A stretch of DNA of 64,000 nucleotides from Macrostomum lignano (Eukaryota): positions 24,883-88,882 of the forward strand of contig NIVC01003225.1 in the NCBI GenBank assembly GCA_002269645.1. Reading direction: 5' to 3'. The translations under genes and the position numbers were made by a program. Position 1 is the first letter of the stretch. The number at the start of each line of letters is the position of its first letter. The notes under the pieces were generated by a model, which saw only the letters and a list, made by a program, of their open reading frames with translations, was not told where the DNA came from and made no database searches. Shown piece by piece: positions 18,280 to 61,290 of the stretch.

Positions 18280-18655
18280 AGTAGTATATACGATACAAAA
18301 TTGCCAGCAAACCGTTCTCATAATTCAATCAATTTAACCCTTTATCAGTGTGAAATGACTCATTTTCCCTTCACATCGCTCGTCTTCACTTCGCTCGTGT
18401 TCATTACCGCTCGTCTTCACTCCGCTCAACTCGCTCCGCCCATCCTCGCTTCATTTCTGTCAATTTCCCAATTTCACACTTACAACACTTCCCAACACTT
18501 CCAACACTTCCAACACTTCCAACACTTCGAACACTTCGAACACTTCCAACACTTCCAACACTTCCAACACTTCCAACACTTCCAACACTAACAAACACTC
18601 TATAACCCCAGGCCGCGCCGCAGGCGCGAAGGGTCTTTTTCTGTTACTAAAAATA
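18280..18655 (+). repeat. Left TIR of Maverick copy 1 with an expanded 9-bp (AACACTTCC)n array at about 18483-18590
   Basis: Matches 30887-31255 and the reverse complement of 48400-48770. Confidence 0.85.
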
Positions 18656-18662
18656 GACAAAA

Positions 18663-19073
18663 ATGACACACGTTACACATATACAAAATCTGAATGAATT
18701 TCAAATAGGAGACCCAGTTGAATACCGAGGTGAGGGTCTTTTTGATGTGGTTGGAACAGCAGCAAATTTCGTTAAAGATAATATGGGTCTTATAGGCCAA
18801 GCAGGCTCTGCAGCAGGATCTATAACAAACGCTGTAAAGGGCGGAATCGAAGCAGCTAGGGCAGCAGAAGAACTAAAGAAATTGAGAGAATTTAACGACA
18901 CCCTCTCACAAATAAAAGCAATAAAAGATTTGAAACTAGCGCAGGAAGCAACTCAAGCCGCACAACCAACAGAAACCCCCACGAAAAGCACACCAATAAG
19001 TAATAAAGATATTCAGGATTTTAATAAAATGTTAACCACAATTAAAGGCGGAAAAGGATTAAAGAAATTTTAA
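18663..19073 (+). CDS. Maverick small putative core/structural protein (136 aa)
   Basis: Intact homologue of 47984-48389; YRGEG-LFD followed by an amphipathic helix; ends IKGGKGLKKF. Confidence 0.7.
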   Translation: MTHVTHIQNLNEFQIGDPVEYRGEGLFDVVGTAANFVKDNMGLIGQAGSAAGSITNAVKGGIEAARAAEELKKLREFNDTLSQIKAIKDLKLAQEATQAAQPTETPTKSTPISNKDIQDFNKMLTTIKGGKGLKKF

Positions 19074-19083
19074 CAATATAAAA

Positions 19084-20073
19084 ATGGACTCAGTTAATAA
19101 CGATCGGCTATATTTTATAGGAGAAATTGTGGATACTTTAAATCTAGACGATAACAAACATAGTCACGCAATGTTAAAAAGATTGGATCGCTTAGGCAAA
19201 AAACTTGACTATGATATCGATACATTTAAACTTGCTTCAAAATATGCAAAAGAAGGAAGGCCAATATCCTTTAAGAATCACGGTAGAAACTATAGGCTAA
19301 CAGACTCCGATGTGAAATTTTTATTGGAGACTCACACTAAAAAGGACGGCGGGTTGCTACCCATTTTACCAATACTTTTGGGTCTCGGAGCAGCCGGAGC
19401 AACCGGATTAGCAGCCAAAAGAATTCACGATAACAGAAAACAATTAGCTGAATTAAAAGCAAAAGAAGGGGGTATATTACCCCTCGCAACTTTGCTCCCA
19501 ATAATTTTTGCAGGAATAGGAGCAGCCGGTGGAATAGCGGGAGGAGCCGCCGGAATCACAAAGGCAGTAAATGACAAAAAAGCAGCGGATGAAAAAGCTT
19601 AAAGAGATGCTGAATTTCAAAGACAGCAAATAACGCAGGACGCACAATTCAAACAAAAACTTATAGATACAATTAATAGTATCTCAGCAACAGCAGAACA
19701 AAAAAGAAATGCAGAAGCTAAATTAGCAGCCGGAAAAGGTTTAATTTTAAAAGGTACAAATCACGGCGACGGTTTAATTTTAAAAGGAACAACCCAAGGA
19801 AGCGGAGTTGTCGCAGATAAACTACATGAGTTTGGGCAAACTTTAGAAAAAACGGGTGAGAAAGCTAAAGGATTTTTTGACAATATTGGAGCTAATTTTA
19901 GGCCAGCCGTTCAGAAGATTTTTAATAAATTGGGAAAAGATTTTAACATAATTGAAAAACACGACGGAAGTGGATTATATCTCGAAATGCGACCAAAAGC
20001 AGGTTCAGGAATCTTCTTAAATGCAAACGTTATGGGCAGCGGACTACTGTTACCGAAAGCGGATCTCGAATAA
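19084..20073 (+). pseudogene. Maverick protein with tandem GG-LLP hydrophobic peptides; in-frame TAA at 19600
   Basis: Homologue of 47014-47973, which has AAA (Lys) at the stop position. Confidence 0.8.
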
Positions 20074-20099
20074 ATATTATATAAATTTTATTCTATAAA

Positions 20100-23000
20100 G
20101 TGGAACAAAGACTGACCCCAGATCAGATTCGACAACTTCTTGCAAATGAGCGCGAACAGTTCAATCGATTACAAAGACAGGTTGAACAAATTGAACAGCG
20201 CCAAAGACAAAGAGAAAGACAGAGAGCAAGAGAAAGACAGAGAGCGAGAGAAAGAGAAAGGCAAAGACAAAGAGAAAAACAAATAGAAGATCAGCAAATA
20301 AAAGAATTAGCAAATAATATAAGGGCATGAAATGAAATGAAGCGTTTAATAGAAAACGCTGAATATGAAAAAAGAATAGCAGAATTAGAAAAAAACCAAA
20401 AGAAACCCATACGTCGGAAACCGCGGAATAAATCGGATGAAAAACCACTAGAAGAGTTTATTAGGGTTTATCGATTTGAACCAATGCAGAACGTCCTAGA
20501 TTGAAACCCAACTTTCAAACGGATATAGTGTTGAAATTACAAACGCAAGAGTACAATATTTTTATAACAAAACCGGAGATGATCGCGAAGAGATTAATCA
20601 ATACCTAGCAACATTTTATAATATAAGTCAGTTTCAAGCTTGGTTTAAACATTTGGTAGAAAACTACGACATGAATTTAAGTGTGTTTTACGGAAGACTT
20701 AAAATGACACCAAATGAAATTACACTTAAACACGAAAGGTCAAAGCAGGGTATGGGCACAAACGTCATGTGTGAAATTAGTGAATATCAAGACGAGTACT
20801 GTTACATACCTAGTGATGGAAATTGTTTCTACAAGTGTGTTCAATTTATTTATGGTGATAAAGCCCCATCCAAAGACGAATATTGTGCTTGGTTGTACGA
20901 CTCAAGAACCCAAAGAGGTTTAATGACAAATTCAAGAATTGGAAAATTCAATGAATATTTTAATCTGAACATAGGGTTGTATAATCCTAATAATCGTGGA
21001 ATTGAACCGAAGTCTCAAAGAGGGATTCACCACGACTGGCTATTAATAAATTACTATCACACAGCCGATTATCACATTGGTCATTATTGCCTTATATCCA
21101 ATAAACAAAGAGGAATCGCCCTCGATCGGATAAAAGACAATTATAAAGTAGTATTTAAAAACCCAACGTCTGAAAATGTTAAAGAGCTAAAAATTTTCAA
21201 CACATCCACAAATCCCAATAAATCAAATGTATACATATTTGATTTTGAAACATATTTAAATTATAATCAACAAGCATGCCCGTATGCAGTTGGTCTTTTA
21301 AACTATAACGACTTTTCTAATAATTGTAACGAAAGCCCAGAGACAATAAAGAAACTAACTAAGATCTTGATATCAGATCGCGGTTGTGATTTTCAAACAG
21401 ACGGAGCTAAGGTTGACTGTGTTAGAAAAATGTTTAAATACCTTGGTACAGTTAGGTCAAAAAAGATTGTTTTGATGGCACACAACTCATCCCGCTTCGA
21501 TTCGTACATACCACTATTTTGTAATATAAAACCAATTAAAATTCTTAAAACCCCAAGAGGAATATTATCAATCACTTTTGTAAACGATTACGCGTCAAAA
21601 GCGGTTAGGGCGTTTATAAACAAAGATAAGAAGAAGAATCACAAGGATTCGAAACAAACCATTATGATGCTTTGCTCATATCAACACGCCTCAATGAGTT
21701 TAAAAAAGTTTTGCTCGTCAATGACAATTAGAGAGGATTTGCGCAAGACCTCAATGGTTCATGAAATTACCGAACACGACTACCTAGAGCGCATGGATGA
21801 ATGGTATGAATATTTACAATTTGATCTTATTTCTTTATGTGCCTGTATTCATAAGTATAATGAAATAGCATATGAAATTGGAGGAATGACAATGTTTGAT
21901 ACTCTTACATGTTCGAGTTTAACATTAAAATGTTGGTTTAAAGATTTTGTTAGAGTTGAAGACAAAATGAAACAATACCTAAAGACAAAAGAAAAAAGTA
22001 ATTACATTAAAAAAGTTGAAGAAATAATATCTCCGTTGAAAATCGAAGATTATTTTGACTTGAGCAAACTTGAAAAAATGAAATACCAAACACTATTAAG
22101 AAAATAATTTTCGGTTCACTCTCATACCAATCCTTATATAGGAAGGTTTATGCGGGACGCAGTCAAAAGAGGCAGAGTATTTGCATTAATAAACAAATAC
22201 GAAAGCGACTGTTTTCAAACAATCGTAGACATCGTAAAAGATCATTTAAAAATACCGACAAGCGAGCCATGTGAGGTTATATCAACTTATCTCAAAAGCG
22301 ACATGGAAGAAAAAAAGAAAATCGCAATTAAACTAAAAAACCAATTGGGTACTGTATCAGATTGCTTAATGAATTTTGATGGAGTCTCATTGTACCCATC
22401 CGCCATGTCTGATAAGGATAGTGAATATCCAAGAGCAGAAAAGGCAGAGTTTTTGATATAAGTGAGGAAAATGATTTTTTGACACAATTTAATTCACAAA
22501 CCTTTCGACCAAAAACAGCGGTTTTAAAGATTATGTATGAGAATCCCACCAGCGTTTTTCTTCAACATCTCCCATCGAAAGATAAAGAGAAATTTTATAA
22601 TCCGGAAACAAAAGCAAATGAAACAAAAGCATTAAATAGGTTTAGCAACGGAAAGGTAATCGACACCTTATGTTCCGTAGACATACAAGAAATTGTAAGA
22701 ATGGGTGGAAAAATATTAAAGATATACAGCGGAATTGTATATGAAAAAAATTACGTTTCAGAATTATATTACAAACCTTTTTGAAATGAGAAAAGTATTT
22801 AAAAAAGAAAATAATGAGGCGGGTTCTGAATTGGTAAAAACATTGTTAAATTCCTTATATGGTAAAACAGTTCAAAGAGACATTACTTTCACAACTCATC
22901 TCTGGAATTTGCTAACATTAAAAAAAGAATACGACGACATAATCAAGTCTAATGAGAAAATATGTGATGACTTATTTTATGTTGAAAGAAAGAAAGACAC

Positions 23001-23665
23001 ACAAGAATATTTAGATGACGACGATATTCCTACAACAGGCCTTTGTCCGGCGCAATTAGGGATATTTATCTTAGCTCATTCAAGAAGGATCATGAATAAT
23101 TTTATCACGTCTATAGACGGCTCAAAGACTCCAGAAATTTATTACGGCGACACCGATTCGTTATATATACATAAAAAACATTGGGACACATTAAATAAAA
23201 ACGGGCATGTCGGGAATAATTTAAGTCAAGGAAAAACGATTATGGCGAGGGTGGAATTCTATTCGGATATTTTATCGCTCCTAAAATTAAATATTGTCTT
23301 TTGTTGAAAGACGATTTTATTATGGAAGAGAAAAAACATTTAAAGGATGTGCAAATGATAAGGTCAATTTTGCATCGTTTAAAACTTTATATGATGGACA
23401 ATCAATAAAAGTAAATAATAATGCTCCGTGGAAACGATCGTTTGAAGGTGGTATAACAATCCCCCAAAGCGGCTCAACAATATCAAAAACATATACTTCT
23501 ACGATAAACACATATAAAAGAGAAAAACCGGATAAAAACGGAGTTATGAAACCATTCTTTAAAAACTATTTTGATGACAAACCACAGCATGAACACTCAA
23601 TTGAATATTATAACAGTTTACTATTTGACGTTGACTATAATTGTTTTGAGTTCGATATGAACTAG
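20100..23665 (+). pseudogene. polB: Protein-primed family B DNA polymerase (terminal protein - vOTU - exonuclease - polymerase), disrupted
   Basis: GNCF...GHYCL (OTU); FDFET, HNSSRFD, YLQFD (Exo I-III); DGVSLYP, KTLLNSLYGK, YGDTDS. Stops at 20328 and 22105, a 4-bp and an 11-bp deletion relative to copy 2, and several 1-bp losses. Confidence 0.93.
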
Positions 23666-24445
23666 CACTTATCAAAAACTAAAGCATGTAATTGTTTAAG
23701 CATAATATCCTTTTCAATTTCAAATTTTATAGAACACCAATTGTCTTCACAGTCGGCAGGATAACTTAAACAATCTTTTATTTTTTTCCTAAGTACTTTT
23801 ATTCGTCTAACCAACCTATCAATTTCAATTTCAATTTCGTTCTCCGAATCACTGGTTTCGTATGAACTATTTGTTGAGTCGGAATCTTCTGAACGAACCT
23901 CCCAATCGTCTGAATTTAAATAATCTCCAAGTTGAAATATTAACTCACCCTCTTGTTCTAGATCATACTAGCAATCTAGTGCCCCCCTTCGGGGTGGCCA
24001 ATAAGCAAGGGACGAATCCTTTAAAATGAAAAGAATTCTTAGGGAGGGGGCTAGGAATCGAATTCTCATTTTAATTCTGGGGCTTATGTACCAATAAAAC
24101 ATGCTTGTTTAGAATTTTAAAACTGACAATTCAACCTACTTGCCTTCTTTCAGAGCAATAGCGTACTACTTCTGTTGCGGTGCAAGCAGTACGCTCTGCA
24201 ACGACTGGAAAAGCAACTACAGCTAAAAAAAGTCTATTAAACTGAACAATATCGTCTTTATTAATTTCCAACGAATTATCGAATAAAGACAGAACAGTTC
24301 AAAGCTATAGTCAAAAGGATAAGAACTAAGATGTTTTTGCAGAAGGCTTCGCCAACAAGATTTGTAAAATTAATAAACAGACAAGAAAATATAGCTTTCA
24401 CAGAGATCACAGTCATTACCCCTAAATAGAAAATATTCCCAAGAC

Positions 24446-24720
24446 AGCAAGCATCCCCCCCAGTAGCAAGCATCCCCCCCAGTAGCAAGCATCCCCTAAT
24501 ACTCCTAGCAAGCATCCACCCAGATAGCAAGCATCCCCTAATACTCCTAGCAAGCATCCACCCAGATAGCAAGCATCTGCAGATAGCAAGCATACCCCAA
24601 AAAATGTAGAAGCATCCTTCCAGATAGCAAGCATCCCCCAAATAATGTAGAAGCATCCTTCCAGATAGCAAGCATCCTGCACAAAGCAAGAATCCCTAAA
24701 TAGCAAGCATCCCTGGATAG
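24446..24720. repeat. Degenerate GATAGCAAGCATCC tandem repeats inside H1
   Basis: Same unit as the array at 57765-58600. Confidence 0.85.
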
Positions 24721-24744
24721 AAATAATCCTATACATGTAGCCAA

Positions 24745-34652: not shown

Positions 34653-36894
34653 ATGGCTGAAACAAAAACTATATGGAGTGATAAATTTCATTTCAAAAAG
34701 CATCGTCAGTATATTAATGAGGTTAGGGCAAAAGATTTAAATTTTACTCTACCAACAAGTGATAATTCAAATAACTTTACTACCGGAACGGTAACTTTTG
34801 ACATTGGCGCAGCCGACAGCGTTTTGGATATGAAAAATGCGTTTTTCCGCGTTAGATGGTTGTATACCAGAAATGATGGAACTGCTCTTGCAGCCGGTGA
34901 TATCGCAGATCGTTCTGGTATTATTATAGAAAATGATTGGTTTTATAAATGTTTTTCCCAAGCCCAACTAACAGTTAATGGAGCCGAGGTTGAGACATCA
35001 ACAAACCCAGCAGAGATTAATGGAGTTTTGAAACATTTAAATTATACTTATTTATCAAAACAAGTTGGTGATAGTGTTGGGTGGATGCCGGATAAGGGTG
35101 ATGGACGAGCACTAGTTTTCCCTAACGTACAAAACGCAGCTGGCGCAGATACCGCAGCTCTTATAGCTTATCTTAATACCAATATAGTGTGACGTTGTCA
35201 GTTTAAGGTGGTCCCGAAAAGGGCCGCTGGACTATATTTTCCCTTGTAATTTCTCATATTAATTTCTCCAATAGTTTATTTTAACGTTTACTTATAGTAG
35301 AGCCCAACGATTTTGTGGCAATTTCTAATTCACTGTATATTTTGCTATCCTCTCTCGCGGCCGTATAAAATTGGCACGATCGATAATTTTAAGTTCTCTC
35401 GCCAGCCAATGAAAACCACTCGTGCTTCGCGCTACCCCCCTCTGCGCTCCTTTATTAAACCCCCCGCCTGGCGGCGGCACTCCTCTCTCCCGTCCTTATC
35501 TGTGCTTCTCTCTTCCTCCCGGCCTGTCCTCGGCCTTGTTTTCCTTCTCTCTGTCTGGGCCAGCCTGTTTACACTGCCTGCCACTGTCTGCCACGGCTAA
35601 CGCCAATCTCACCACTACGCATCTGCCACTGTTGTGCTCATCGCCGTTACTCACCACGTTGCATCGTCTTGCATCACTCGCCTACCACTCAACTACAATC
35701 TCTAACTCACCTTCAATTCAAAACCATTGTTGAAGCCGCCAGTGCCCCAAAAGCGCAATAAGTTCTATATTGATATTAACCGCATCGAATATTGATCTCA
35801 ACAATAATAACCAACTACGGCCAGTTTCCGGCCTTGTATGCCAAGTGCTCCGCTACGCAAATCCGCTATCAAGACTTGACTCGATTCATTTGGGACTAAA
35901 ACGGCCCTTTTAAGGGTCACGGACAACATCAAATAACGTGACAATAGTTCCAGTTGTAACCACCATGACTAACACAAAAGATATTAATACTGGTTTTATC
36001 GATCGTCAGAATAAATTCCCAGTCGCGGTTTTAACCACAGCAAGCGCATATGAGCAGGACTTTTCAATCTTCCCACTATTTGGGTTCTTCTCACCAAATC
36101 GGGTATGGAAAGGATTAAAATTTGGGATACAGTTGCAAATATCTGGCGGATATCAGCCTAGGATACTTTATGGAACCTCGATTTCAACCGATATCGCAGT
36201 TCGCATAGCATCAATTCAATTAGTCGTGCCAAAACTCGAGCTAACGGCACCGCTTTTAAAACATGTCGATAATCAGTTAATGGTTGATCAAGAAATATTT
36301 TATTTGAATCGTCGACACTTTATGCGAACCATTAATAATAACCAGGATTCATTCCAGTGGCAGATAATTACATCAAAACGTCGGGTTAGATATATTTTTG
36401 TTTGGTTTAAGATAACAAACAGAAGGAGTAAAAGAACAAATGGAGATTTATATTGGCTTCAATCGGGTGACATACCAGCACAAGCAGCCACCGCAACAGA
36501 CAATGCGGCTTCGGCTATTAACGAGTTTAATGTTCAGAATATCCGCCTGCAGGTTGATGATCAATATTATCCGGTTAAAGACCCCCTTAATCTAAATCTT
36601 GCAAATAATAATGTTAATGATTTTATAAAATATTATCTGGATTATGTCAAAAATGAAGCGTATGCTGTTCCTCAGTACACACCCACAGAGTTTATAAACA
36701 TTCACCCAGTGGTTGTTTTTGATCTAACGGCACAGAAAGAAAACGTATCCAATGTTGGACTTAATTATATGTTAGAGATTAATAAAACCGGTAATCAGGC
36801 AATAGAGGCCCACGTATTGTTTCTAGAGGAATATATGTCAATTGCTAAAGCTGATGGCACGATTGTTCGGGATGTGCCCTTAGATAAAAATTAG
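34653..36894 (+). pseudogene. Double jelly-roll major capsid protein (about 493 aa restored), interrupted by a solo-LTR-like insert
   Basis: VTFDI...LDMKNAFF...LTVNGAEVE, PLFGFF, RYIFVWF, YYP, VVFDLT resemble Maverick MCP. Removing 35188-35947 rejoins NTNIVPVVTT in frame. Confidence 0.82.
35188..35943. mobile_element. 756-bp solo LTR-like insertion (alternative: non-autonomous Ginger-like element)
   Basis: TGTGACGTT...AACGTGACA termini; 4-bp TSD ATAG (35184-35187, 35944-35947); AATAAA on the minus strand near 35455; no coding capacity. Confidence 0.8.
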
Positions 36895-36913
36895 ATAAAT
36901 TATTTCATTAAAA

Positions 36914-37681
36914 ATGGTAAAAGCAAAACACAATATTATATTTCCAACTGATCCTTTTCTTTGTTTAGTAATTGGTGGGTCGGGTAAAGGAAAAACACAC
37001 TTTGTTTACGATTTATTAACAACAGATGGAATGTTAGACTATAATAATTTATTAATCTATACTAACAAACCTAGAATAAAATATTATGAATTTCTTAAAC
37101 ATGGATTAAAAAACAAATGAAAAAAATATATCTTGTTTAGAATGTTAAGGGCTTATGAGAAATATGAAGACGACGACGAACCAAAATTTACACTCGACGA
37201 CATTGAGGATTTATGTAAAACAACGGCAGAAGATCCAGAAAACACTAACAACCGAGCCCCAACTGTTAGAGTATCAACCCGATTATCCTATGATCAAATT
37301 CCAAAACATGATAAAACATTAATTATTTTTGATGATTGTATTAACGACGGCGATCAAGAATTGCAAAAAGAAATTTTTGTTAGTGGCAGAGGTGATGGAA
37401 TTGGAGCTTTTTATCTAACACAGTCCTTTAGAGAATTAGAATCGATTATAAAAAAGAATGCAAGTTGTTGTGTAATGATCGATTTAGATAACTATGATCT
37501 ACAAAATATACATGCGAGATTTAATCCTGGGTTGGATGCAAAACCATTCAAAAGTATGTGTAAAAAAATTTGGGATGATAGTCAATACAAACATATTTAT
37601 ATCAATCCGAGGTTAGAAAGGAAACATAGAATCTTAACAAATTTGATAAAAGAAGATAACGAGGAAGAGGAAGACCAATAG
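36914..37681 (+). pseudogene. A32/FtsK-like genome packaging ATPase with one in-frame TGA (37118-37120)
   Basis: Walker A GGSGKGKT, Walker B IIFDD, GRGDGIGAFYLTQS; the two ORFs share one frame. Confidence 0.9.
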
Positions 37682-37700
37682 CACGTTTCCCACTATAAAA

Positions 37701-38403
37701 ATGGCTACAAATTTGGATTCAATTACGTAATGCACTAAATCTTGATCAATCTCTAAGTTATCAAATAGGTTTGATACTATTTTCAGTTTTTAACATGCCT
37801 CAATTAATTAATGCAACAAACAATCAATTTAGATATTCTAAAGATTCGGGAGCAAATTGGACAACCATTACTATAACGCCGGGTGCATATAACTATACTG
37901 ATTTGAATGCAGTAATACAAGCGGATTTAACAGATAATGGTGATTGGGTAGCAGATGCGATTGTTATAGGAGTTGATTTACCCTCAGGAAGATTCACGCT
38001 TACATTAGCATCTGGATATCAGGTTGATTTTACAATTGCAAATTCACTTAGAACCATACTAGGATTTAATTCCCGAATCGTTACTGCATCAACAACGGGC
38101 GACACCGTGGGAAATATTGAAGGCGGAGTCAACACAATTAATATTACAACCGACATTTCAAATGGTGGTTATATAACGGACGATAGTGGATTTTTGGTTC
38201 AGCGAGGAATTATTTATTCAATCCCCTTTTTAGCTGTTCCAATCGGAGATAAAATGATAGTTGCTCCGCAAACCCCAATATATTATCCTCTAAAGCAATA
38301 TAATTTACAATCAATTTATATACGAATAGTGGACGATTCAGATCGTATAATAAGTTTTGGTGGACAAGCAATAACAGTAATTTTACGTATAAAACAGGTT
38401 TAA
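37701..38403 (+). CDS. Minor capsid (penton-like, single jelly-roll) protein; frameshift near the start
   Basis: LNLDQSLSYQIGL...MPQLINATNNQFRY, ITITPGAY, SLRTILGF, INITTDI, IYYPL, IRIVD; located between ATPase and protease. Confidence 0.75.
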
Positions 38404-38447
38404 TCGCCCTGTAGGGTCGCGTGCTTTGCACGATTCCCATAGTAAAA

Positions 38448-38621
38448 ATGGGTAATAATAATGCGTTAAAAAAACAATCAGATAAAGTTCAAAACGCAAA
38501 GGATAATTATGAAATTGAACTAACAAAATTGAAACAACTTCAAGCAGAAAAAATCCGAAAGGAGTTGTTAAAACCCACGGCTACAAAACTAACTAAAACC
38601 AAGAGTTTTTCAGGAACATAA
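38448..38621 (+). CDS. 57-aa basic coiled-coil protein starting MGNNNA
   Basis: TAAAAATG start; closely packed between penton and protease genes. Confidence 0.55.
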   Translation: MGNNNALKKQSDKVQNAKDNYEIELTKLKQLQAEKIRKELLKPTATKLTKTKSFSGT

Positions 38622-38622
38622 A

Positions 38623-39117
38623 ATGACTATGAGTTGGGGCGAGTTCAAACAAAGATATGGAACAGACACAACAAGCAATATCGAATTAACAAATTGGGCA
38701 AGGCAATTAAAAATAAAACCATTTAGATGTGTTATGCGGGATGAGATCAAAGATTTACCACAATATGGATCTTACATAGTCAATATTGAAACGACAAAAG
38801 AAAACGGCGTTCATTGGTCAGCAGTTTATTCCAAACCCAAACTTGTTTATTTTTTTGATTCATATGCCCTTCCTCCATTACAGGAAATAAAAGACAAATT
38901 TAATCATACTAAAAATCGTTTATGTGGAGATTATCACGAACAGTTTCAAACCTTTGACAAAAGTTATTGCGGACAGGCGGCGCTTTATTTTTTTTATCGA
39001 CTTTCGAATGAAGCTCGTGTAAACCCAGAAGTATTTAAAGCTATTTTAGACTCCATAAAAAAGACAGTAAAAAATGTTATTTTCTGGAACACCCTCATGG
39101 AACGGAACAACAAGTAG
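38623..39117 (+). CDS. Adenain-like (clan CE) cysteine maturation protease
   Basis: GVHWSA (His), YFFDSY (Asp), FQTFDKSYCGQ (Gln/Cys); intact ORF. Confidence 0.92.
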   Translation: MTMSWGEFKQRYGTDTTSNIELTNWARQLKIKPFRCVMRDEIKDLPQYGSYIVNIETTKENGVHWSAVYSKPKLVYFFDSYALPPLQEIKDKFNHTKNRLCGDYHEQFQTFDKSYCGQAALYFFYRLSNEARVNPEVFKAILDSIKKTVKNVIFWNTLMERNNK

Positions 39118-41118
39118 TGGTGGTGGCACTTCTGGTGGGATTAGTGTTACATTCGGAGATAATCGATATATTAATGAAGATGAAGGTTATAAAAAAACTG
39201 AAATTGATAATAAACTAAATTTGAAACGGAATGTTGCAGATTCCTATACCAAAACTCAAATAGATGATTCATTAAATTTAAAACGCAATACAGCCGATTC
39301 TTATACCAAAACTGAAATCGACACTTCATTAAATTTGAAACGGAATGTTGCAGATTCTTATACCAAAACCGAGGTTGATAATTCCTTAAATTTGAAAAGA
39401 GATATATCTGATTCCTATACCAAAACAGAGGTTGATAATTCCTTAAATTTGAAAAGAGATATAAGTGATTCCTATACCAAAACAGAGGTTGATAATTCCC
39501 TAAATTTAAAACGGAATGTTGCTGATTCCTATACCAAAACAGAGGTTGATAATTCCTTAAATTTGAAAAGAGATATAACTGATTCCTATACCAAAACAGA
39601 GGTTGATAATTCCTTAAATTTAAAACGGAATGTTGCTGATTCTTATACCAAAACCGAAGTTGATAATATAGTTGGAGGTGGAGCCCCAAAACAGGATCGA
39701 TTCCAAACTGTTGAAACTGGCCACATACCTACCATGTCAGATTGGAGTGGAAATGGTTTTACAATAACCGCAAGCACCGCATTTAATACAACTGATTTTG
39801 CAAGTTGGAAAGCGTTTGATGGTAATGATTCAACAGATTGGGCAACAAATAATACCCAAACTGATTATTGGATTCAAGTCCAATGCCCCTCCGCGATAAT
39901 GTGTTATAAAATTGATTTGCGTGGGAGACCGTCGCCTTCAACCGAGCACCCCGCATCATGGCGATTTGAGGGGAGTAATGACAATACGAGCTGGGATGTT
40001 TTAATACCTGCGGATAGTTCTGTAGAAATAAATAACTCAACTCAAACAATTAATGTCACACAAAATTTTGATAAAACATATTTATATTTCAGATTGTTCT
40101 GTCTTACGTCAACATCGGGTTCTACCAACCCCGGCCTGTCAACCTTTCAGATTTATAGGCAGACTTTCACAGTTCTTGATTTAAATTTGGGAGTAGTTAA
40201 TCAATCAATTGATATGGGTGGTAACACAATTACTAATATCTCTACTATAAACGATAACAGCTCTGTTGTTACTAAAGGTTATGTTGATACTGTTGTAACA
40301 CAAACGTCGGATGGCCGAATGTCTTTTAACGATAAAATAAAATTGGATGGAATACCTGCAATTGATGCCGCTTTGTACGAACCCGTAATTTGCAATTGGA
40401 CTGGATATCAAAACCCAACCACCGCCGGTGATATTTTCCAACAGGAAGTTTTGTTGGAGATGCTTTATATATTGATTATCAAAATGGAGCTAGAATTACT
40501 GATGAAGCATCGGGTCGGTCTGGAGCGTTACAATTTAATTTAACACATTTTCGTAATATATCCTACTCCTTCTATTTCCGAGTTGCTAATGCCACAGGTG
40601 ATGGAGCTGATGCGGTTTGGTTTTATGCATACTGTCATGAACGACCAACAAGTGAATTTGGATCTGGATTAACAACCAACGCCGGCTTGATAGTGTTTGC
40701 GAGTGAATGGCATGACAGAGTTGGACTTCTTTGGAGTAATTTAAAATCAGACGGATCAACAGTTCGTAATGATGTTCTTAATGACGCAGATCAAACTATA
40801 ACCTATGCCGATATTGATAATGGTGATTGGTATCTGTTTGAAATCAATATTCTTAATCAAAGAGTTTGGTATCAATTAAGCTCATTCAATGTTTCAACTA
40901 AAGCATATACGCTAATTGGGCAAAACTTTTTTACATATGATAGTGGAACTTGGGGAGAGTTAGATAAAACGGGAACTCTTATGGGTTTTGGTGCTCGAAC
41001 TGGAGGATCAGATGCTGCACATTTTATTCGTGGCGCGGCCGTTTGTGGTAGCACATCAGCAGGATATAGTTTTGCTGCGACCGCATATTTGGAACAACCA
41101 CCCACTCAGATAACTTAA
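39074..41118 (+). CDS. Putative fibre / receptor-binding protein (about 681 aa after restoring one T at about 40436)
   Basis: 8.5 x 19-aa DSYTKTEVDNSLNLKRxxx repeats; discoidin/F5-8C-like domain (ASTAF..WKAFDG...W..WIQV...W.FEGSND..W); DMGGNTITNI..TKGYVD fibre motif; L-lectin-like FVGDA...ARIT...GADAVWF. Confidence 0.72.
39181..39670 (+). repeat. 57-bp coding tandem repeat (fibre shaft)
   Basis: In-frame repeat with mostly synonymous variation. Confidence 0.9.
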
Positions 41119-41133
41119 ATATTTCTATATAAA

Positions 41134-41460
41134 ATGGCTTTTAGTAGAAATCCATCGATGCGACAAAATAATGTTATTATTCCGATTCCTAAACAAGAAT
41201 CAAATATAAAAACTTTTAAATCTCATACCAAATTTTTATTTAGTACTGTAAATGTCCAGGATAATAAGAAACTTCAAGAATTAATTAAATTGTTAAAAAA
41301 CCATATTATACTTCAAGAGTTTTGGAAAATAGGATTTAAATGGGAGAAAAAAGAAAGAATCACTCCAATGCAATACTTATTGAGCTCGGGGCAGATTCCC
41401 AAAGAGCGTGGAGAGTTCATTTTGGTGCTATTAAAAATAGACGAAAATGTCGGTGTCTGA
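41134..41460 (+). CDS. Hypothetical protein (108 aa)
   Basis: TATATAAAATG start; overlaps the next ORF. Confidence 0.6.
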   Translation: MAFSRNPSMRQNNVIIPIPKQESNIKTFKSHTKFLFSTVNVQDNKKLQELIKLLKNHIILQEFWKIGFKWEKKERITPMQYLLSSGQIPKERGEFILVLLKIDENVGV

Positions 41461-42130
41461 AGCAGATAAAAGGGAACGTGACCATTTTAACCAACGTAAA
41501 GGTCACATGTTAAGGAATGTTGATCGTATTAACTATGATTATGATTTATATAGTAAAAAAGTAAGAAGAGTTTCAAACCATATCAGAAATATGGATTTTT
41601 TCAATATTGGATTTGGAAGTTTATCGATGTTATGTGTAATAGTTTTAGGTATTTTACAGTCAGTTCCAACTCTTAATTTATCTCAATTATTTTTAGGTAT
41701 TTCAATTGGTTCAATATCAGGTTTTGAATTAATCAGAAACTTATCAATACTTTTGGCAATTAAATTATATCTTAAAAAACGAAAAGAAAAATATAAATCA
41801 TTAAGAGATATTGCAAAACAATATAAAAATCAGTTATATTTATATGTGCAAAAAATATTGGATGATGGAGAGATAACAATTCATAAGTTATCAACGGCGG
41901 TTGAATTATATGAAAAATATTTAAAAGATAGAAATCGAATTTTGGATGTTGAAACTTTTACCGATATGGAGTTAAAGGAATTACGTTTGGACAAACCCAA
42001 AGTTCCGCCTATAGAAACTATTGAATACAAGCCGGAAATTATCGGACGAAGTCCGCGAACCTCCGGTTCGATGTCTACTGGGGTACAAAGCCCGCGGTCA
42101 GGAAGTACTGTAGAACTTCAGGTTGTTTAA
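41447..42130 (+). CDS. Two-TM Maverick protein resembling adintovirus GasderminX-type proteins
   Basis: Two hydrophobic helices then KKRKEKYKSLRDIAKQYKNQL...KILDDGEIT...ELYEKY, recalled as similar to a conserved Maverick membrane-protein pattern. Confidence 0.5.
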   Translation: MSVSEADKRERDHFNQRKGHMLRNVDRINYDYDLYSKKVRRVSNHIRNMDFFNIGFGSLSMLCVIVLGILQSVPTLNLSQLFLGISIGSISGFELIRNLSILLAIKLYLKKRKEKYKSLRDIAKQYKNQLYLYVQKILDDGEITIHKLSTAVELYEKYLKDRNRILDVETFTDMELKELRLDKPKVPPIETIEYKPEIIGRSPRTSGSMSTGVQSPRSGSTVELQVV

Positions 42131-42610
42131 TTTATTTAATGCATATGTTATATATTCTTCCCAAAGTGGTAACTCTCTTATAATCCTAGGTTTAATTTTT
42201 TTATCAATACATAAAAATTCCAATGACTTTTTCAATAACATTTCGTTAGGTATGTTGCCTATCCTTATAAACTTTGTATTCTGTCGCAAAAGAAAATTGA
42301 AATAATATCCAACTAAAATTAAAATCCTTTCAGAGTCTTTCGAACTTAATCCCTTTCCTTTATTTAAATGGAAAAAGTTATTATATAAATAAACATTATT
42401 TCCATGAATTAAAATTGGATTAGAAATGTCCCTTGTAAGATTTTTTATAATTGTGTTTTTGAAATAGTAATATGAGTTTTCAATCTTTTTTGTTTTTTCA
42501 AATTGATATATTTTAGAACATGAATAACACATGTGATATATATCTCCGTTTGCTGTTTGACCTCTATGCATAGTAACATTACATTTTTTACATTCGTAAA
42601 TGTCTTTCAT
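42098..42610 (-). CDS. Zn-ribbon hypothetical protein (170 aa)
   Basis: CKKC...CYSC at the N-terminus; AAAAATG start. Confidence 0.55.
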   Translation of the reverse strand: MKDIYECKKCNVTMHRGQTANGDIYHMCYSCSKIYQFEKTKKIENSYYYFKNTIIKNLTRDISNPILIHGNNVYLYNNFFHLNKGKGLSSKDSERILILVGYYFNFLLRQNTKFIRIGNIPNEMLLKKSLEFLCIDKKIKPRIIRELPLWEEYITYALNKLNNLKFYSTS

Positions 42611-42637
42611 TTTTTTTGTTATTTTTTTAGATTAAAA

Positions 42638-42973
42638 ATGGAACGCTGGTTCAAAACCGATTCTAATGTGATTAATTTTCTCACACCCAATATGTTGGAG
42701 AATAAAGAATATGATATTATATGTTTGAGACAGGTTAAATTTATTGGAATTCAATCGATATTTTCACAATTGGATGGTCATACTGTCCTATGTCTAAGTG
42801 GGAATGATGTTAAAAATTTTCCAGTTTTAGTTATTAATAAACCGAAAAAGTTTGTTATGAAATATAGTCTGGGCGACAGTGGCTTGCAATTTAAACTAAA
42901 ACAAACAAAAAATAAAAAGAGGGACAGGACTGTAAAGTTGGCTTCCGTTTGGGAGGACAACGACGAAGACTAA
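42638..42973 (+). CDS. Hypothetical protein (about 111 aa)
   Basis: TAAAAATG start inside the tracked ORF 42533-42973. Confidence 0.55.
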   Translation: MERWFKTDSNVINFLTPNMLENKEYDIICLRQVKFIGIQSIFSQLDGHTVLCLSGNDVKNFPVLVINKPKKFVMKYSLGDSGLQFKLKQTKNKKRDRTVKLASVWEDNDED

Positions 42974-42988
42974 ATTTTTTATAAGAAA

Positions 42989-43332
42989 ATGGAGACACTA
43001 AAGATCTTTATAACTAAAGAGCGCGAACTTGAAGATATTAATAAAAAATAAATAAAATATGTTATAGTGATTATGGAGAAGATATGTTTCCTATTCGATA
43101 CGAGTTGGATAAAAGAAAGCGTTTTATACAAGCTGCGATTGCTTATGCTGAAACAGTAATTGAAATTGAAATCGATCGACTTGTTAGGAGAATAAAAGTA
43201 CTTAGGAAAAAAGTAAAAGAATGTTTAAGTTACCCTGCCGACTGCGAAGACAATTGGTGTTCTATAAAATTTGAAATTGAAATGGATATTATGCTCAAAC
43301 AATTACATGCTTTAGTTTTTTATAAGTGCTAG
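42989..43332 (+). CDS. Hypothetical protein; one extra A at about 43050 joins the 42989 ATG to ORF 43084-43332
   Basis: C-terminal part conserved in copy 1 (about 23660-23835, minus strand); stop overlaps the polB stop at CTAG. Confidence 0.55.
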
Positions 43333-46300
43333 TTCATCAATATCGAACTCAAAACAATTATAATCAACGTCAAATAGTAAGCTGTTATAATATTCAATTG
43401 AATGCTCATGCTGTGGTTTGTCATCAAAATAGTTTTTAAAGAATGGTTTCATAACTCCGTTTTTATCCGGTTTTTCTCTTTTAAATGTTTTATCGTAGAG
43501 GTATATGTTTTTGATATTGTTGATCCGCTTTGGGGGATTATTATCCCACCTTCAAACGATCGTTTCCACGGAGCATTACTATTTACTTTTATCGACTGTC
43601 CATCATATAAAGTTTTAAACGATGCAAAATTAATCTTATCATTTGCACATCCTTTAAATGTTTTTTTCTCTACCATAATAAAATCATCTTTCAACAAAAG
43701 ACAATATTTAATTTTAGGAGCAATAAAATATCCGAATATAATTCCACCCTCACCATAATCATTTTTTCCTTGACTTAAATTATTTCCGACATGTCCGTTT
43801 TTATTTAATGTATCCCAATGTTTTTATGTATATATAACGAATCCGTATCACCGTAATAAATTTCTGGAGTTTTTGAACCGTCTATAGAGGTGATAAAATT
43901 ATTCATGATCCTTCTTGAATGAGCTAATATAAATATTCCTAATTGTGCCGGACAAAGACCCGTTGTAGGATTATCGTCGTCATCTATATATTCTTGTGCG
44001 TCTTTCTTTTTTTCTACATAAAATAAATCGTCACATATTTTCTCATATGACTTGATTGTGTCATCGTATTCTGTTTTTAATGTATTCAAATTCCAGAGAT
44101 GATTTGTGAAAGTAATGTCTCTTTGAACTGTTTTACCATATAAGGAATTTAACAATGTTTTTACTAATTCAGAACCTGCCTCGTTATTTTCTTTTTTAAA
44201 CACTTTTCTCATTTCAAAAAGGTTTGTAATATAATTTTGAAACGGAGAGAAATCGTAATTTTTTCATATACAATTCCACTGTATATCTTTAATATTTTTC
44301 CACCCATTCTTACAATTTCTTGTATGTCTACGGAACATAAGGTGTCGATTACCTTTCCGATTCGAAACCTATTTAATGTTTTTGTTTCATTTGCTTTTGT
44401 TTCCGGATTATAAAATTTCTCTTTATCTTTCGATGGGAGATGTTGAAGAAAAACGCTGGTACCAGTAGGATTCTCATACATAATCTTTAAAACCGCTGTT
44501 TTTGGTCGAAAGGTTTGTGAATTAAATTGTGTCAAGAAATCTTTTTCCTCGCTTATATCAAAAACTCTGCCTTTTCTGCTCTTGGATATTCACTATCCTT
44601 ATCAGACATGGCGGATGGGTACAATGAGACTCCATCAAAATTCATTAAACAATCTGATACCGTACCCAATTGGTTTTTTAGTTTAATTGCGATTTTCTTT
44701 TTTTCTTCCATATCGCTTTTGAGATAAGTTGATATAACCTCGCATGGGTCGCTTGTCGGTATTTTTAAATGGTCTTTTACAACGTCTACAATTGTTTGAA
44801 AACAGTCGCTTTCGTATTTATTTATTAGTGCAAATACTCTACCTCCTTTGACTGCGTCCTCATAAACCTTCTTATATAAGGGTTGGTATGAGAGTGAACT
44901 GAAAATTCTTTTCTTAATAATGTTTGGTATTTCATTTTTTCAAGTTTGCTTAAGTCAAAATAATCTTCGATTTTTAACGGAGATATTATTTCTTCAACTT
45001 TTTTAATGTAATTACTTTTTTCTTTTGTCTTTAGGTATTGTTTCATTTTGTCTTCAACTCTAACAAAATCTTTAAACCAACATTTTAATGTTAAACTCGA
45101 ACAGGTAAGAGTATCGAACATTGTCATTCCTCCAATTTCATATGCTATTTCGTTATACTTATGAATACAGGCGCATAAAGAAATAAGATCAAATTGTAAA
45201 TATTCATACCATTCGTCCATGCGCTCTAGGTAGTCGTCCTCAGTAATGTCATGAACCATTGAGGTCTTGCGCAAATCCTCTCTAATTGTCATTGATGAAC
45301 AAAACTTTTTTAAACTCATTGAGGCGTGTTGATATGAGCAAAGCATCGTAATGGTTTGTTTCGAATCCTTATGATTCTTCTTCTTATCTTTGTTTATAAA
45401 CGCTCTAACCTCTTTTGACATATAATCATTTACAAAAGTGATTGATAATATTCCTCTTGGGGTTTTAAGAATTTTAATTGGTTTTATATTGCAAAATAGT
45501 GGTATGTATGAATCGAAGCGGGATGAGTTGTGTGCGATCAAAACAATCTTTTTTGACCTAACTGTACCAAGGTATTTAAACATTTTTCTAACACAATCAA
45601 CCTTTGGTTGCGAACCTTCGGTACGATCGGTCTTATCTCCGTCTGTTTGAAAATCACATCCGCGGTCTGATATCAAGATCTTAGTTAGTTTCTTTATTTC
45701 CTCTGGAGTTTCGTTACAATTATTAGAAAAGTCGTTATAGTTTAAAAGACCAACTGCATACGGGCATGCTTGTTGATTATAATTTAAATATGTTTCAAAA
45801 TCAAATATGTATACATTTGATTTATTGGGATTTGTGGGTGTGTTGAACATTTTTAACTCTTTAACATTTTCGGGCGTTGGGTTTTTAAATACTACTTTAT
45901 AATTGTCTTTTATCCGTTCGAGGGCGATTCCTCGTTGTTTATTGGATATAAGGCAATAATGACCAATGTGATAATCAGCCGTGTGATAATAATTTATTAA
46001 TAACCACTCGTGGTGAATCCCTCTTTGAGACTTCGGTTCAATTCCACGATTAATAGGGTTATACAGCCCCATGTTAAGATTAAAATATACATTGAATTTT
46101 CCAATTCTTGAATTTGTCATTAATCCTTGTTGGGTTCTTGAGTCGTACAACCAAGCACAATATTCGTCTTTGGATGGGGCTTTATCACCATAAATAAACT
46201 GAACACACTTGTAGAAACAATTTCCATCACTAGGTATGTAACAGTACTCATCTTTATACTCTGCAATTTCACACATGACATTTGTTCCCATACCCTGCTT

Positions 46301-57764: not shown

Positions 57765-58600
57765 GACAGCAAGCATCCCCCAGATAGCAAGCATCCTCCA
57801 GATTGCAAGCAACCCCCGGATAGCAAGCATCCCCCAGATAGCAAGCATCCCCCAGATTGCAAGCATCCCCTAGATAGCAACCATCCCCCAGATAGCAAGC
57901 ATCCCCCAGATAGCAAGCATCCCTCAGATAGCAAGCATCCCCCAGATAGCAAGCATCCCCAAGATAGCAAGCATCCCCCAGATAGCAAGCATCCCCCAGA
58001 TAGCAAGCATCCTCCAGATTGCAAGCAACCCCCGGATAGCAAGCATCCCCCAGATAGCAAGCATCCCTCAGATAGCAAGCATCCCTCAGATAGCAAGCAT
58101 CCCCCAGATAGCAAGCATCCCCAAGATAGCAAGCATCCCCCAGATAGCAAGCATCCCCAGATTGCAAGCATCCCCCAGATAACAAGCATCCCCCAGATAG
58201 CAAGCATCCCCCAGATAGCAAGCATCCCCTAGATAGCAACCATCCCCCAGATAGCAAGCATCCCCAGATAGCAAGCATCCCTCAGATAGCAAGCATCCCC
58301 CAGATAGCAAGCATCCCCCAGATAGCAAGCATCCCCCAGATAGCAAGCATCCCCAGATAACAAGCATCCCCCAGATAGCAAGCATCCCCCAGATAGCAAG
58401 CATCCCCAGATAGCAAGTATCCCCAAGATAGCAAGCATCCCCCAGATAGCAAGCATCCCCCAGATAGCAAGCATCCCTCAGATAGCAAGCATCCCCCAGA
58501 TAGCAAGCATCCCCAGATAGCAAGCATCCCCCAGATAGCAAGCATCCCCCAGATAGCAAGCATCCCCTACATAGATAGCATCCCCAAATAGCAAGCATCC
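57765..58600. repeat. 17-18-bp satellite (GATAGCAAGCATCCCCCA)n
   Basis: Direct inspection. Confidence 0.95.
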
Positions 58601-58689
58601 ACCAGACAATAAGTAGCTAGTGCGACAATTTCCTTAGCATTATAGTGGCTCCTTTAATATTCGCTTACTTTTACGTTTGAAATTGTGTA

Positions 58690-61290
58690 AATTTTATGTT
58701 TGACATGGTGGCTCTTTTATGTTCTACATGGCAACTCTTTTATGTTCTACATGGCAACTCTTTTATGTTTGAAACGATGGCTTTTTAATGTCTGACATGG
58801 TGGCTCTTTTATGTTTGACATGGTGGCTCTTTTATGTTTGACATGGTGGCTCTTTATTGTTTGACATGGTGGCTCTTTAATGTTTAACCTGGTGGCTCTT
58901 TTATGTTTGACACAGTGGCCCTTTAATGTTCGACAAAGTGGATATTTAATGTTTGACAAGGTGGCTTTTAAATGTTTGACATGGTGGCTCCTTAATGTTC
59001 GAAATGGTGGCTCTTTAATGTATGACATAAAGACACATATATAATTGACATGGTGGCTCTTAAATGTTTGACATGGTGGCTCTTTATTGTTTGACATAGT
59101 GGCTCTTTAATGATCGACAAAGTGGCTCTTTAATGTTCTTCATGGTATAGCTCTTTTATGTTCGACATGGTGGCTCTTAAATGTTTGACATGGTGGCTCT
59201 TTAATGTTAGAAATGGTGGCTCTTTTGTTTGACATGGTGGCTCTTTAATATTCTACATTGTGGCTCTTAAGTGTTCGAAATGGTGGATCTTTTAGGTTTG
59301 ACATGATGGCTGTTTAATGTTTGACATGGTAGCTCTTTTATGTTGACATGGTAGCTCTTTTAGGTTTGACATGGTGGCTGTTTAATGTTCAGTATGATGG
59401 CTCTTTAATGTTCAACATAGTGGCTCTTTAATATTCTACATGGTGGCTCTTTTATGTTTAACATGGTGGCTCTTTTGTTTTACATGGTGGCTCTTTAATG
59501 TTTGACATAAAGTCACTTATATGTTCGAAATGGTGGCTCTTTAATATTTTACATTGTGGCTCTTAAGTGTTCGACATGGTGGCTCTTTTAGGTTTGACAT
59601 GGTGGCTCTTTTATATTCTACATTTTGGCTCTTAAATTTTCGACATGGTGGCTCTTTTTGTTTGACATGGTGGCTCTTTTATGCTTGATATGGTGGCTCT
59701 TTAATGTTTAACATGGTGACTTTTAATGTTCGACATGGTGGCTCTTTGATATTCGACAGGGTGGCTCTTAAATGTTTATATGGTGGCTCTTTATGTTTGA
59801 CATGTTGGCTCTTTTGTGTTTGACATGGTGGCTCTTTCATGTTTGACATGGTGGCTCTTTTTGTTCGAAATAGTGGCTCTTTTTTGTTCTACATGGTAAC
59901 TCTTTTATATCTGATACGGTGGCTTTTTTAATGTCTGACATGTTGGCTCTTTTATGTTTGACATAGTGGCTCTTTAATGTTCAAAATGGTGGCTCTTTTA
60001 TGTTTGACATGGTGGCTCTTTAATGATTGACATGGTGGCTCTTTTATGTTCGACATGGTGGCTCTTTAATGTTCGAAATGGTGGCTTTTTAATGTTCAAA
60101 AAGTGGCTCTTTAATGTACGACATAATGACTCTTTAATGTTTGACAATGTGGCTTTGAATGTTTGACATGTTGGCTCTTTAATGTTTGACATGGTAGCTC
60201 TGTTATGTTCGACATGGTGGCTCTTTAATATTCTTCATGTTATAGCTCTTTCATGTTTGACATGGTGGCTCTTTAATGTTCGAAATAGTGGCTCTTTAAT
60301 GTTCGAAATGGTGGCTCTTTAATGTTCGACACAAAGTCACATTTATGTTTGACATGGTGCTCCTAAATGTTTGACATGGTGGCTCTTTATGTTTGACATG
60401 TTGGCTCTTTTATGTTTGACATAGTGGCTCTTTGATGTTCGAAATAGTGGCTCTTTTATGGTCGACATGGTGGCTCTTTAACGTTCGAAATGGTGGCTCT
60501 TTAATGTTCGAAATAGTGGCTCTTTATGTTCGAAATGGTGGCTCTTTAATGTTCGAAATGGTGGCTGTTTAATGTTCGAAATGGTGGCTCTTTATGTTTG
60601 ACATAAAGTCACTTATATGTTTTACATGGTGCCTCTTAAATATTAGACATGGTGGCTCGTTTAGGTTTGACATGTTGGCTCTTTAATGTTCGACATGGTG
60701 GCTCTTTAATTTCGAAATGGTGGCTCTTTAATGTACGACATAATGGCTCTTTAATGTTTGACAATGTGGCTTTTGAATGTTTGACATGGTAGCTCTGTTA
60801 TGTTCGACATGGTGGCTCTTTAATGTTCGAAATAGTGGCTCTTTAATGTTCGAAATGGTGGCTCTTTAATGTTTGACACAAAGTCACATTTATGTTTGAC
60901 ATGGTGGCTCCTAAATGTTTGACATGGTGGCTCTTTATGTTTGACATGTTGGCTCTTTTATGTTTGACATGTTGGCTCTTTTATGTTTGACATAGTGGCT
61001 CTTTGATGTTCGAAATAGTGGCTCTTTTATGGTCGACATGGTGGCTCTTTAATGTTCGACATGGTGGCTCTTTAATGTTCGAAATGGTGGCTGTTTAATG
61101 TTCGAAATGGTGGCTCTTTTATGTTGACATAAAGTCACTTATATGTTTTACACGGTGCCTCTTAAATATTAGACATGGTGGCTCGTTTAGGTTTGACATG
61201 GTGGCTCTTTTATGTTTGACATGTTGGCTCTTTAATGTTCGACATGGTGGCTCTTCTATGTTTGACATTGTGCTTCTTTTATGTTTAGCA
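58690..61290. repeat. Diverged 22-23-bp satellite (TGTTTGACATGGTGGCTCTTTWA)n
   Basis: Direct inspection. Confidence 0.93.

Follow-up and report, generated by a model that had tools for sequence, protein, structure and literature searches.

A Maverick element of Macrostomum lignano carries a gene for a probable attachment fibre built from phage-type modules

Results and discussion

In the analysed window of 64,000 nucleotides from Macrostomum lignano (contig NIVC01003225.1, positions 24,883 to 88,882), a Maverick/Polinton element carries a gene, positions 39074-41118, whose product is probably a trimeric fibre of phage-type modules that sits at the capsid vertex and serves attachment. The type of the element, the order of the domains, the continuity of homologues across a frame break in the gene and the fact that this break is not universal were all established, as were the folds in the form of models. 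In the proposed mechanism, three chains would wind in register through 19-aa repeats to form a thin shaft of about 160 residues, and a short N-terminal tail would dock on the penton at the capsid vertex. Outward from the penton, the order would be tail, shaft, discoidin ring, neck and lectin tip; the three discoidin-like and the three L-type lectin domains may then bind glycans of the host surface or mucus, and this avid two-site attachment would precede uptake. We infer the trimer, its location on the virion, the sugar binding and the role in entry from the evidence presented below.

Table 1 Features of the Maverick/Polinton copy and domains of its fibre gene, in window coordinates
Feature	Position	Strand	Basis or remark
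Left terminal inverted repeat	30887..31260		begins AGTAGT
Retroviral-type integrase	31836..32939	-	Pfam rve, E 1.7e-7, 31.9 bits vs cut-off 32.6
Major capsid protein (MCP), two pieces	34653..36894	+	homologues P0154/P0155 match both pieces, 45-51%
A32-like packaging ATPase, partial ORF	37142..37681	+	Pfam Pox_A32, E 0.0048, below cut-off
Probable minor capsid (penton) protein (mCP)	37795..38403	+	size and position; two sub-threshold Pfam matches
Probable adenain-like maturation protease	38623..39117	+	ORF overlapping fibre start
Fibre gene, one frameshifted gene	39074..41118	+	pieces A and B
N-terminal 36 aa with Gly/Ser/Thr linker; candidate capsid-vertex anchor	39074..39181	+	anchor role suggested by position
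Shaft, 8 full 19-aa repeats and a partial ninth	39182..39670	+	translation, repeat search
F5/8 type C (discoidin/CBM32-like) domain, internal	39704..40168	+	Pfam PF00754
Phage-fibre neck, DMGGNTIT...TKGYVD and GRMSFNDKIKLD motifs	40211..40348	+	PHROG matches, lectin homologues
C-terminal L-type (legume-type) lectin-fold head, frameshift near 40433-40437	40370..41118	+	homologues, structure model
Protein-primed DNA polymerase B, several frameshifted pieces	43449..46564	-	Pfam DNA_pol_B_2, E 2.5e-11, one piece
pX-like core protein gene	47014..47973	-	Pfam Adeno_PX, E 1.3e-4, below cut-off
Right terminal inverted repeat	48395..48770		96.6% to left repeat over 377 bp

The fibre gene and its frame break

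The gene is present in two pieces: piece A (39074-40543, 489 aa) starts with an ATG, and piece B (40432-41118, 228 aa) runs from stop to stop in another frame. The original prediction was that repairing the frame would yield one ORF of about 681 aa, and indeed the pieces sum to about 680 aa and natural homologues run through the break, showing that A and B are one gene. In the homologue P0002, residues 38-105 align up to position 40435 in the frame of piece A and residues 107-331 from 40438 in the frame of piece B; P0008, P0011 and P0027 are also uninterrupted at this position. Since P0002 and other homologues pass from the neck into the lectin domain, the break must cut the lectin head, whose first ~20 residues are encoded in piece A.

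Two separate products, or a programmed frameshift yielding short and long fibres, would be compatible with piece A being open over 489 codons and with the part of the contig depth that has no length difference at the break. We nevertheless consider this very improbable, as the break falls inside the lectin domain, the four homologues named above are continuous over it, piece B lacks an ATG in its first three quarters, 29-100% of the contig depth is length-variant at the break, and further core genes of the same copy are broken too. A programmed frameshift was rejected: no slippery heptamer of the form X XXY YYZ was found in 40381-40480, and the break cuts the lectin domain.

Four sequencing runs, each from a different study, yielded contigs that covered all 30 bins of 34600-42200 in many divergent versions, as expected for a many-copy family. 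A run presumed to be of RNA covered every one of the 30 bins, a pattern that carries no information on transcription. At the break, 59%, 29%, 64% and 100% of the depth (5, 3, 3 and 2 contigs) differed in length in the four runs, and no length difference was found in the remaining 0-71%. Because length differences occur in all four runs and homologues are continuous, the break is a lesion absent from many copies, as the proposed repair of the frame had presumed. Some contigs bear other lesions in the fibre gene, and the family is a mixture of copies differing in integrity. All 5 contig differences listed for piece A are at third codon positions, and the 6 listed for piece B comprise three first positions and one whole codon, in a tally that covers 40 of 845 differences.

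Three contig joints (38431-41109, 38434-41492 and 41483-38413) join sequence at the end of the mCP gene to sequence beyond the fibre gene; they were seen in 2-3 of the 4 runs, at low depth and with sides of 22-29 bases, and are possibly variants that lack protease and fibre here or have another gene order. Relatives of the Maverick were not found in the viral contigs (one weak locus and one jumbo-contig locus), in the metagenome contigs (18 loci, nearly all through the short neck motif alone) or in the genome contigs searched.

The shaft repeat

Translation showed 8 full repeat units and an 11-aa ninth, in line with the predicted ~8.5 copies. The DNA of the shaft has a 57-bp period (7.9 copies, 84% match in a tandem repeat search), and identity at lag 57 was 0.83, compared with 0.30 ± 0.03 (maximum 0.37) in 161 other windows of the Maverick. 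The sequence DSYTKTEVDNSLNLKR occurs exactly in 5 of the 9 units, the first of which is divergent. Pairwise comparison of the 8 full units gave pS 0.52 and pN 0.12 over all pairs, which are not independent of each other. The units thus differ mostly at silent sites, which indicates that the repeat has been shaped as a protein. Contig joints occur within the shaft as well, but contigs this short do not settle the number of tandem units.

A search with piece A retrieved 560 proteins, the best 120 of which were examined: 103 of these have at least three copies of the motif, spaced by 19 residues in 56 of the 103. The homologues listed include Streblomastix proteins and others in which Pfam recognises phage fibre or baseplate domains. 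Among annotated phages, the repeat is found in T5-like L-shaped tail fibres, with 35% over 133 columns to LtfA of phage DT571/2, and also in a short SPO1-type protein that one record calls a tail fibre.

The shaft was modelled over residues 30-212 as a complex of three copies, a number chosen beforehand. The model is a parallel in-register bundle, as the idea of a trimeric fibre called for, and scored 0.74 (runs: 0.74, 0.51 and 0.74; best of three controls: 0.00), although similar solved fibres were possibly remembered by the predictor. The contact agreement between runs was at least 83% and the pLDDT at least 62. In calibrations that contained two-copy cases only, 21 of 30 solved microbial homo-pairs reached this mark, as did 17 of 29 eukaryotic ones; of the monomers, 0 of 23 microbial and 0 of 30 eukaryotic did so. 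The models present the shaft as a parallel homo-oligomer, the copy number being imposed.

The discoidin domain and the neck

The discoidin/F5-8C-like module of the original prediction is matched by PF00754 above the curated cut-off (E 4.5e-11, 43.4 bits compared with 28.2; aa 231-345 of piece A), and PHROG 17517, a 'tail protein', covers aa 211-379 of piece A (E 1e-18). The closest matches of this domain are phage carbohydrate-binding and tail proteins (28-35%); in the PDB, it showed weak matches to CBM32-type modules. We conclude that the middle domain is of the F5/8 type C (discoidin/CBM32) family, and it may bind galactose-type sugars. The protein does contain two folds of the sugar-binding type, but they are not "two heads" as proposed: the discoidin domain is mid-chain, so there are one terminal head and one internal domain.

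The phage-fibre motif DMGGNTITNI...TKGYVD was likewise located, at 40211-40288. The neck region matched eight PHROGs at E ≤ 0.05, four of them named tail fibre (E 0.003-0.03). The same neck is present in 4 of the 32 lectin homologues (E ≤ 1e-3), each continuing into the lectin domain. The Peptidase_S74 chaperone is absent from the fibre gene, as judged by a Pfam scan.

The lectin head

At the sequence level, piece B had no Pfam match, L-type profiles included, no PHROG match, and no match in the PDB, in phages or among longer proteins (the last search being weak evidence). The lectin profile A1 gave short laminin-G-type matches only in the PDB, and no lectin match was found in the search with the lectin homologue P0018. 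An exhaustive search with piece B detected 32 proteins at E ≤ 0.001, the best full one being P0002 (56%); for the family as a whole (P0003-P0032; L002:9761-10591), sub-threshold Pfam L-type matches were seen in 3 of the 25 members scanned.

Piece B was folded with a 22-sequence alignment to a pLDDT of 83.7 and a pTM of 0.84, compared with a pLDDT of 33 from the single sequence. In Foldseek, legume lectins, VIP36 and ERGIC-53 were on top (E 3e-10 to 7e-10). Structural alignment gave Z 20.4 for ERGIC-53 (rmsd 2.7 Å, 191 residues aligned), 18.9 for VIP36, 18.4 for the M. jannaschii legume lectin domain and 17.1 for peanut lectin, whereas no glycoside-hydrolase-type fold scored above Z 13. An L-type lectin was also what the Atlas feature search indicated (0.93), and matches among viral models include phage tail and tropism proteins (E 1e-7 to 1e-6). 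We conclude from the model that the head has the L-type beta-sandwich fold, so that both predicted domain types, the discoidin one backed by Pfam, came through the fold check.

The Asp of the GAD motif is kept in 21 of the 22 rows of the lectin alignment, the GFGARTGG loop is conserved, and Glu75, Glu92, Arg189 and His197 are invariant. The Ala-Asp of the GAD motif and GFGARTGG presumably occupy the positions of the sugar loops of L-type lectins; the head may bind sugar and calcium. Its metal-binding loop reads SEWHD, and legume lectins have another pattern there.

Lectin folds often have non-glycan roles. The protein may accordingly be a capsid-bound fibre or decoration protein in which these folds play a structural part or have proteins or a helper virus as ligands in place of host glycans, and the deviating SEWHD loop would fit this. 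We consider this unlikely, because the GAD Ala-Asp and the GFGARTGG loop are conserved at what we take to be the sugar-binding places, and because a single chain holds two independent carbohydrate-binding folds. In favour of a helper virus as the target, several Polinton-like viruses need giant viruses, according to excerpts of a recent study (10.64898/2026.06.19.733378).

The lectin family is small, with members among prokaryotic proteins of fibre-like, pilin-like and surface type, and extends to a large viral contig. Its named or annotated members are prokaryotic or viral: one is from Patescibacteria, one is pilin-like and one is encoded by a 320-kb viral contig. SpaA/CarboxypepD-repeat surface proteins and the pilin-like protein are among the 32 homologues. 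By sequence, the family is thus not limited to fibres, which counts against reading the present gene as one. A relative with neck and lectin is encoded in the 320-kb viral contig (L002:10001-10552, 28%), and the adjoining ORF looks fibre-like.

The capsid block

The genes for MCP, ATPase, mCP, protease and fibre are consecutive and all lie on the plus strand. This place in a co-oriented block makes a receptor-binding fibre likely. The predicted receptor-binding function is accordingly upheld by shaft, folds, neck and gene position, while its glycan-binding part has the standing of a prediction. Hydropathy revealed neither a signal peptide nor a membrane segment in the fibre protein (no hydrophobic segment in piece A; best 19-aa Kyte-Doolittle mean 0.97), and glycans outside the cell would thus be within reach only on a particle or after lysis.

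A soluble multivalent lectin that modulates host defence or trafficking, carried as non-virion cargo by an element spreading inside genomes only, appears slightly less probable still than a virion protein with non-glycan ligands. It would agree with the excerpted statements that Maverick virions have never been observed and that Mavericks carry cargo genes (10.64898/2026.06.19.733378), and that discoidin-domain genes of Polinton-like viruses are transcribed from integrated copies in Tetraselmis (parts of PMC9356565); the phage tail-fibre shaft and neck, the location in the capsid block and the missing secretion signal speak against it. The attachment fibre therefore remains our preferred reading.

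The MCP was recognised through its homologue P0154, which is 47-51% identical to both pieces and whose Atlas model matches a double jelly-roll-like cluster (TM 0.77/0.84); a word-limited search found 2 MCP relatives at E ≤ 0.001. The MCP gene is split by a GC-richer (47%) insert of ~750 bp (about 35190-35940), with ends reminiscent of the short inverted repeats that flank small non-autonomous DNA transposons. In 3 of the 4 runs, there were contigs joining across it. Pfam, PHROG, NCBIfam and PDB provided no informative match for mCP or protease, and none at all for the protease ORF, in which we take the order of His, Asp, Gln and Cys motifs to be that of an adenain-like protease. Both are candidate assignments, the mCP by position and size and the protease by position and motif order.

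Outside this block, the frame of the integrase opens with a weak match to a parvovirus-type PLA2 (Phospholip_A2_4, E 0.014). A 193-aa ORF at 33301-33882 on the minus strand, with a CxxC pair, YNKEY repeats and a HIDH motif, had no Pfam match; we assume that its motifs resemble those of an HNH-type endonuclease. After the fibre gene follow an ORF at 41447-42130 on the plus strand, with two hydrophobic segments and basic stretches, and one at 42098-42610 on the minus strand, with paired CxxC motifs; both lacked informative Pfam or PHROG matches. In adintoviruses, PLA2 is described as joined to a pX-like domain and not to the integrase, and pX and PLA2-like genes are described as animal-restricted (PMC8502044, in part). 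The weak pX-like and PLA2-like matches of our element suggest that it fits this animal-type gene set, as far as sequence can tell.

Relation to known fibres

The adenovirus fibre consists of a tail, a repeat shaft and a head and is mounted on the penton, and that of porcine adenovirus 4 ends in galectin domains. The layout here is similar, but there is no adenovirus shaft or knob Pfam match, and repeat and head belong to other families. LtfA of the T5-like phage DT571/2 (AJA41761.1) shares the 19-aa YTKxEVD repeat and, after it, a related motif of the 'vtKxxVd' type; it differs in having about 3 repeats, 1039 aa, collar and S74 chaperone domains, another head and a bacterial host.

In the original prediction, the architecture was no standard one for a Maverick gene. 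Its novelty was overstated, since fibres that combine a repeat shaft with a lectin or discoidin domain are already on record in Polinton-like viruses (PLVs) of protists. The relevant sections of PMC12220804 describe LamG arrays, one fusion of phage-tail repeats with H_lectin, and discoidin (F5_F8_C) domains, and propose that the fibres are trimeric, penton-bound and used for host attachment. The Macrostomum fibre is similarly modular, with phage tail repeats and carbohydrate-binding domains. In contrast, those sections mention discoidin alone, paired or fused to patatin and no L-type lectin heads, many PLV fibres end in the Peptidase_S74 chaperone that is missing here, and the PLV hosts are protists (PMC12220804).

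Another small Polinton-related virus, Gezel-14T (PgVV), has an Ltf fibre that was detected in purified particles and that is, like ours, repeat-containing and similar to T5 pb1/T4 gp36; it belongs to a tyrosine-recombinase PLV of an alga, a PLV that depends on a giant virus, and the portion of the text consulted mentions neither lectin nor discoidin (10.1101/2022.07.28.501842). Oomycete Polintons resemble our Maverick: besides pPolB, integrase and protease, they have a conserved gene of the phage-tail-fibre type with a proposed role in host binding, but that candidate has a beta-helix fold instead of a repeat shaft with lectins; nematode Polintons carry a fusogen in place of a fibre (both from parts of 10.1101/2023.08.22.554363). 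Fibres tipped with lectins, and phage-tail-fibre-like genes in Polintons, have thus been described before, in protists and oomycetes, respectively.

For animals, adintoviruses and Mavericks share pPolB, rve integrase, ATPase, protease, capsid, pX-like and PLA2-like genes with our element; section 3.2 of PMC8502044, on other adintovirus genes, lists no fibre, and the names 'Fiber' and 'Lectin' (galactose-binding-like) are found in its part on non-animal datasets, in the legends to Figs 5-6. A study whose excerpts mention no fibre or lectin already treats Mavericks as capsid-encoding viruses and states that no Maverick virions have been seen (10.64898/2026.06.19.733378). The main text of a paper on coral polintoviruses (PMC11131425) contains none of the words fiber, fibre, lectin or discoidin. 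In the open-access literature, main texts being the scope, we found neither a lectin-tipped fibre in animal Mavericks nor the pairing of discoidin and L-type lectin in a fibre. We put forward, tentatively and at somewhat less than even odds, that the gene encodes the receptor-binding fibre of a Maverick family that has spread recently in an animal genome; this fibre would combine phage tail-fibre modules with two different glycan-binding folds in series.

If true, this would be the first concrete attachment protein of a non-enveloped animal Maverick and would point to glycan-based entry; besides the nematode fusogen (10.1101/2023.08.22.554363, in part), no entry protein is named for animal elements in the literature covered. 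The question of the Maverick virion would become testable in a host with many copies: the fibre would be a marker to seek on particles and would predict the kind of receptor, and its maintenance in a many-copy family would argue for an extracellular stage. It would also be a case of phage tail modules at work in a virus of eukaryotes. Since the general idea is established for protist Polinton-like viruses, the surprise is limited.

The element and its insertion site

The Maverick/Polinton copy spans 30887-48770 (17,884 bp), with both termini and the target duplication present. Its size is within the 15-20 kb typical of such elements, and the terminal inverted repeats are flanked by the 6-bp target duplication GACGAC at 30881-30886 and 48771-48776. 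Pfam identified the protein-primed PolB and the rve integrase, the latter with bits just under the cut-off, and the double jelly-roll MCP was found through the structure match of P0154. The copy is decayed: fibre and polymerase genes contain frameshifts, and the MCP gene is interrupted.

The Maverick interrupts the pol gene of a Gypsy element, with the reverse-transcriptase Pfam match divided between the two flanks. This Gypsy occupies 28400-30886 and 48771-50800 on the minus strand, with repeats of ~194 bp at 28381 and 50630 that are 98.5% alike, which suggests that Gypsy and Maverick are both fairly young. The window also has Pfam matches to DUF3504, MULE, GIY-YIG and Gypsy; with the pX-like and PLA2-like genes, these suggest an animal as the repeat-rich host. 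A second, partial copy of the same Maverick lies in opposite orientation at 18280-23970 on the plus strand; 90-94% alike, it has the terminal repeat, the pX-like gene and pPolB, lacks capsid and fibre genes, and stops before a 24-bp satellite at 24747-28216. Long satellites with 23-bp and 18-bp units were found at 52455-56993, 57764-58606 and 58692-61286, the 18-bp unit being similar to repeats at 24446-24729.
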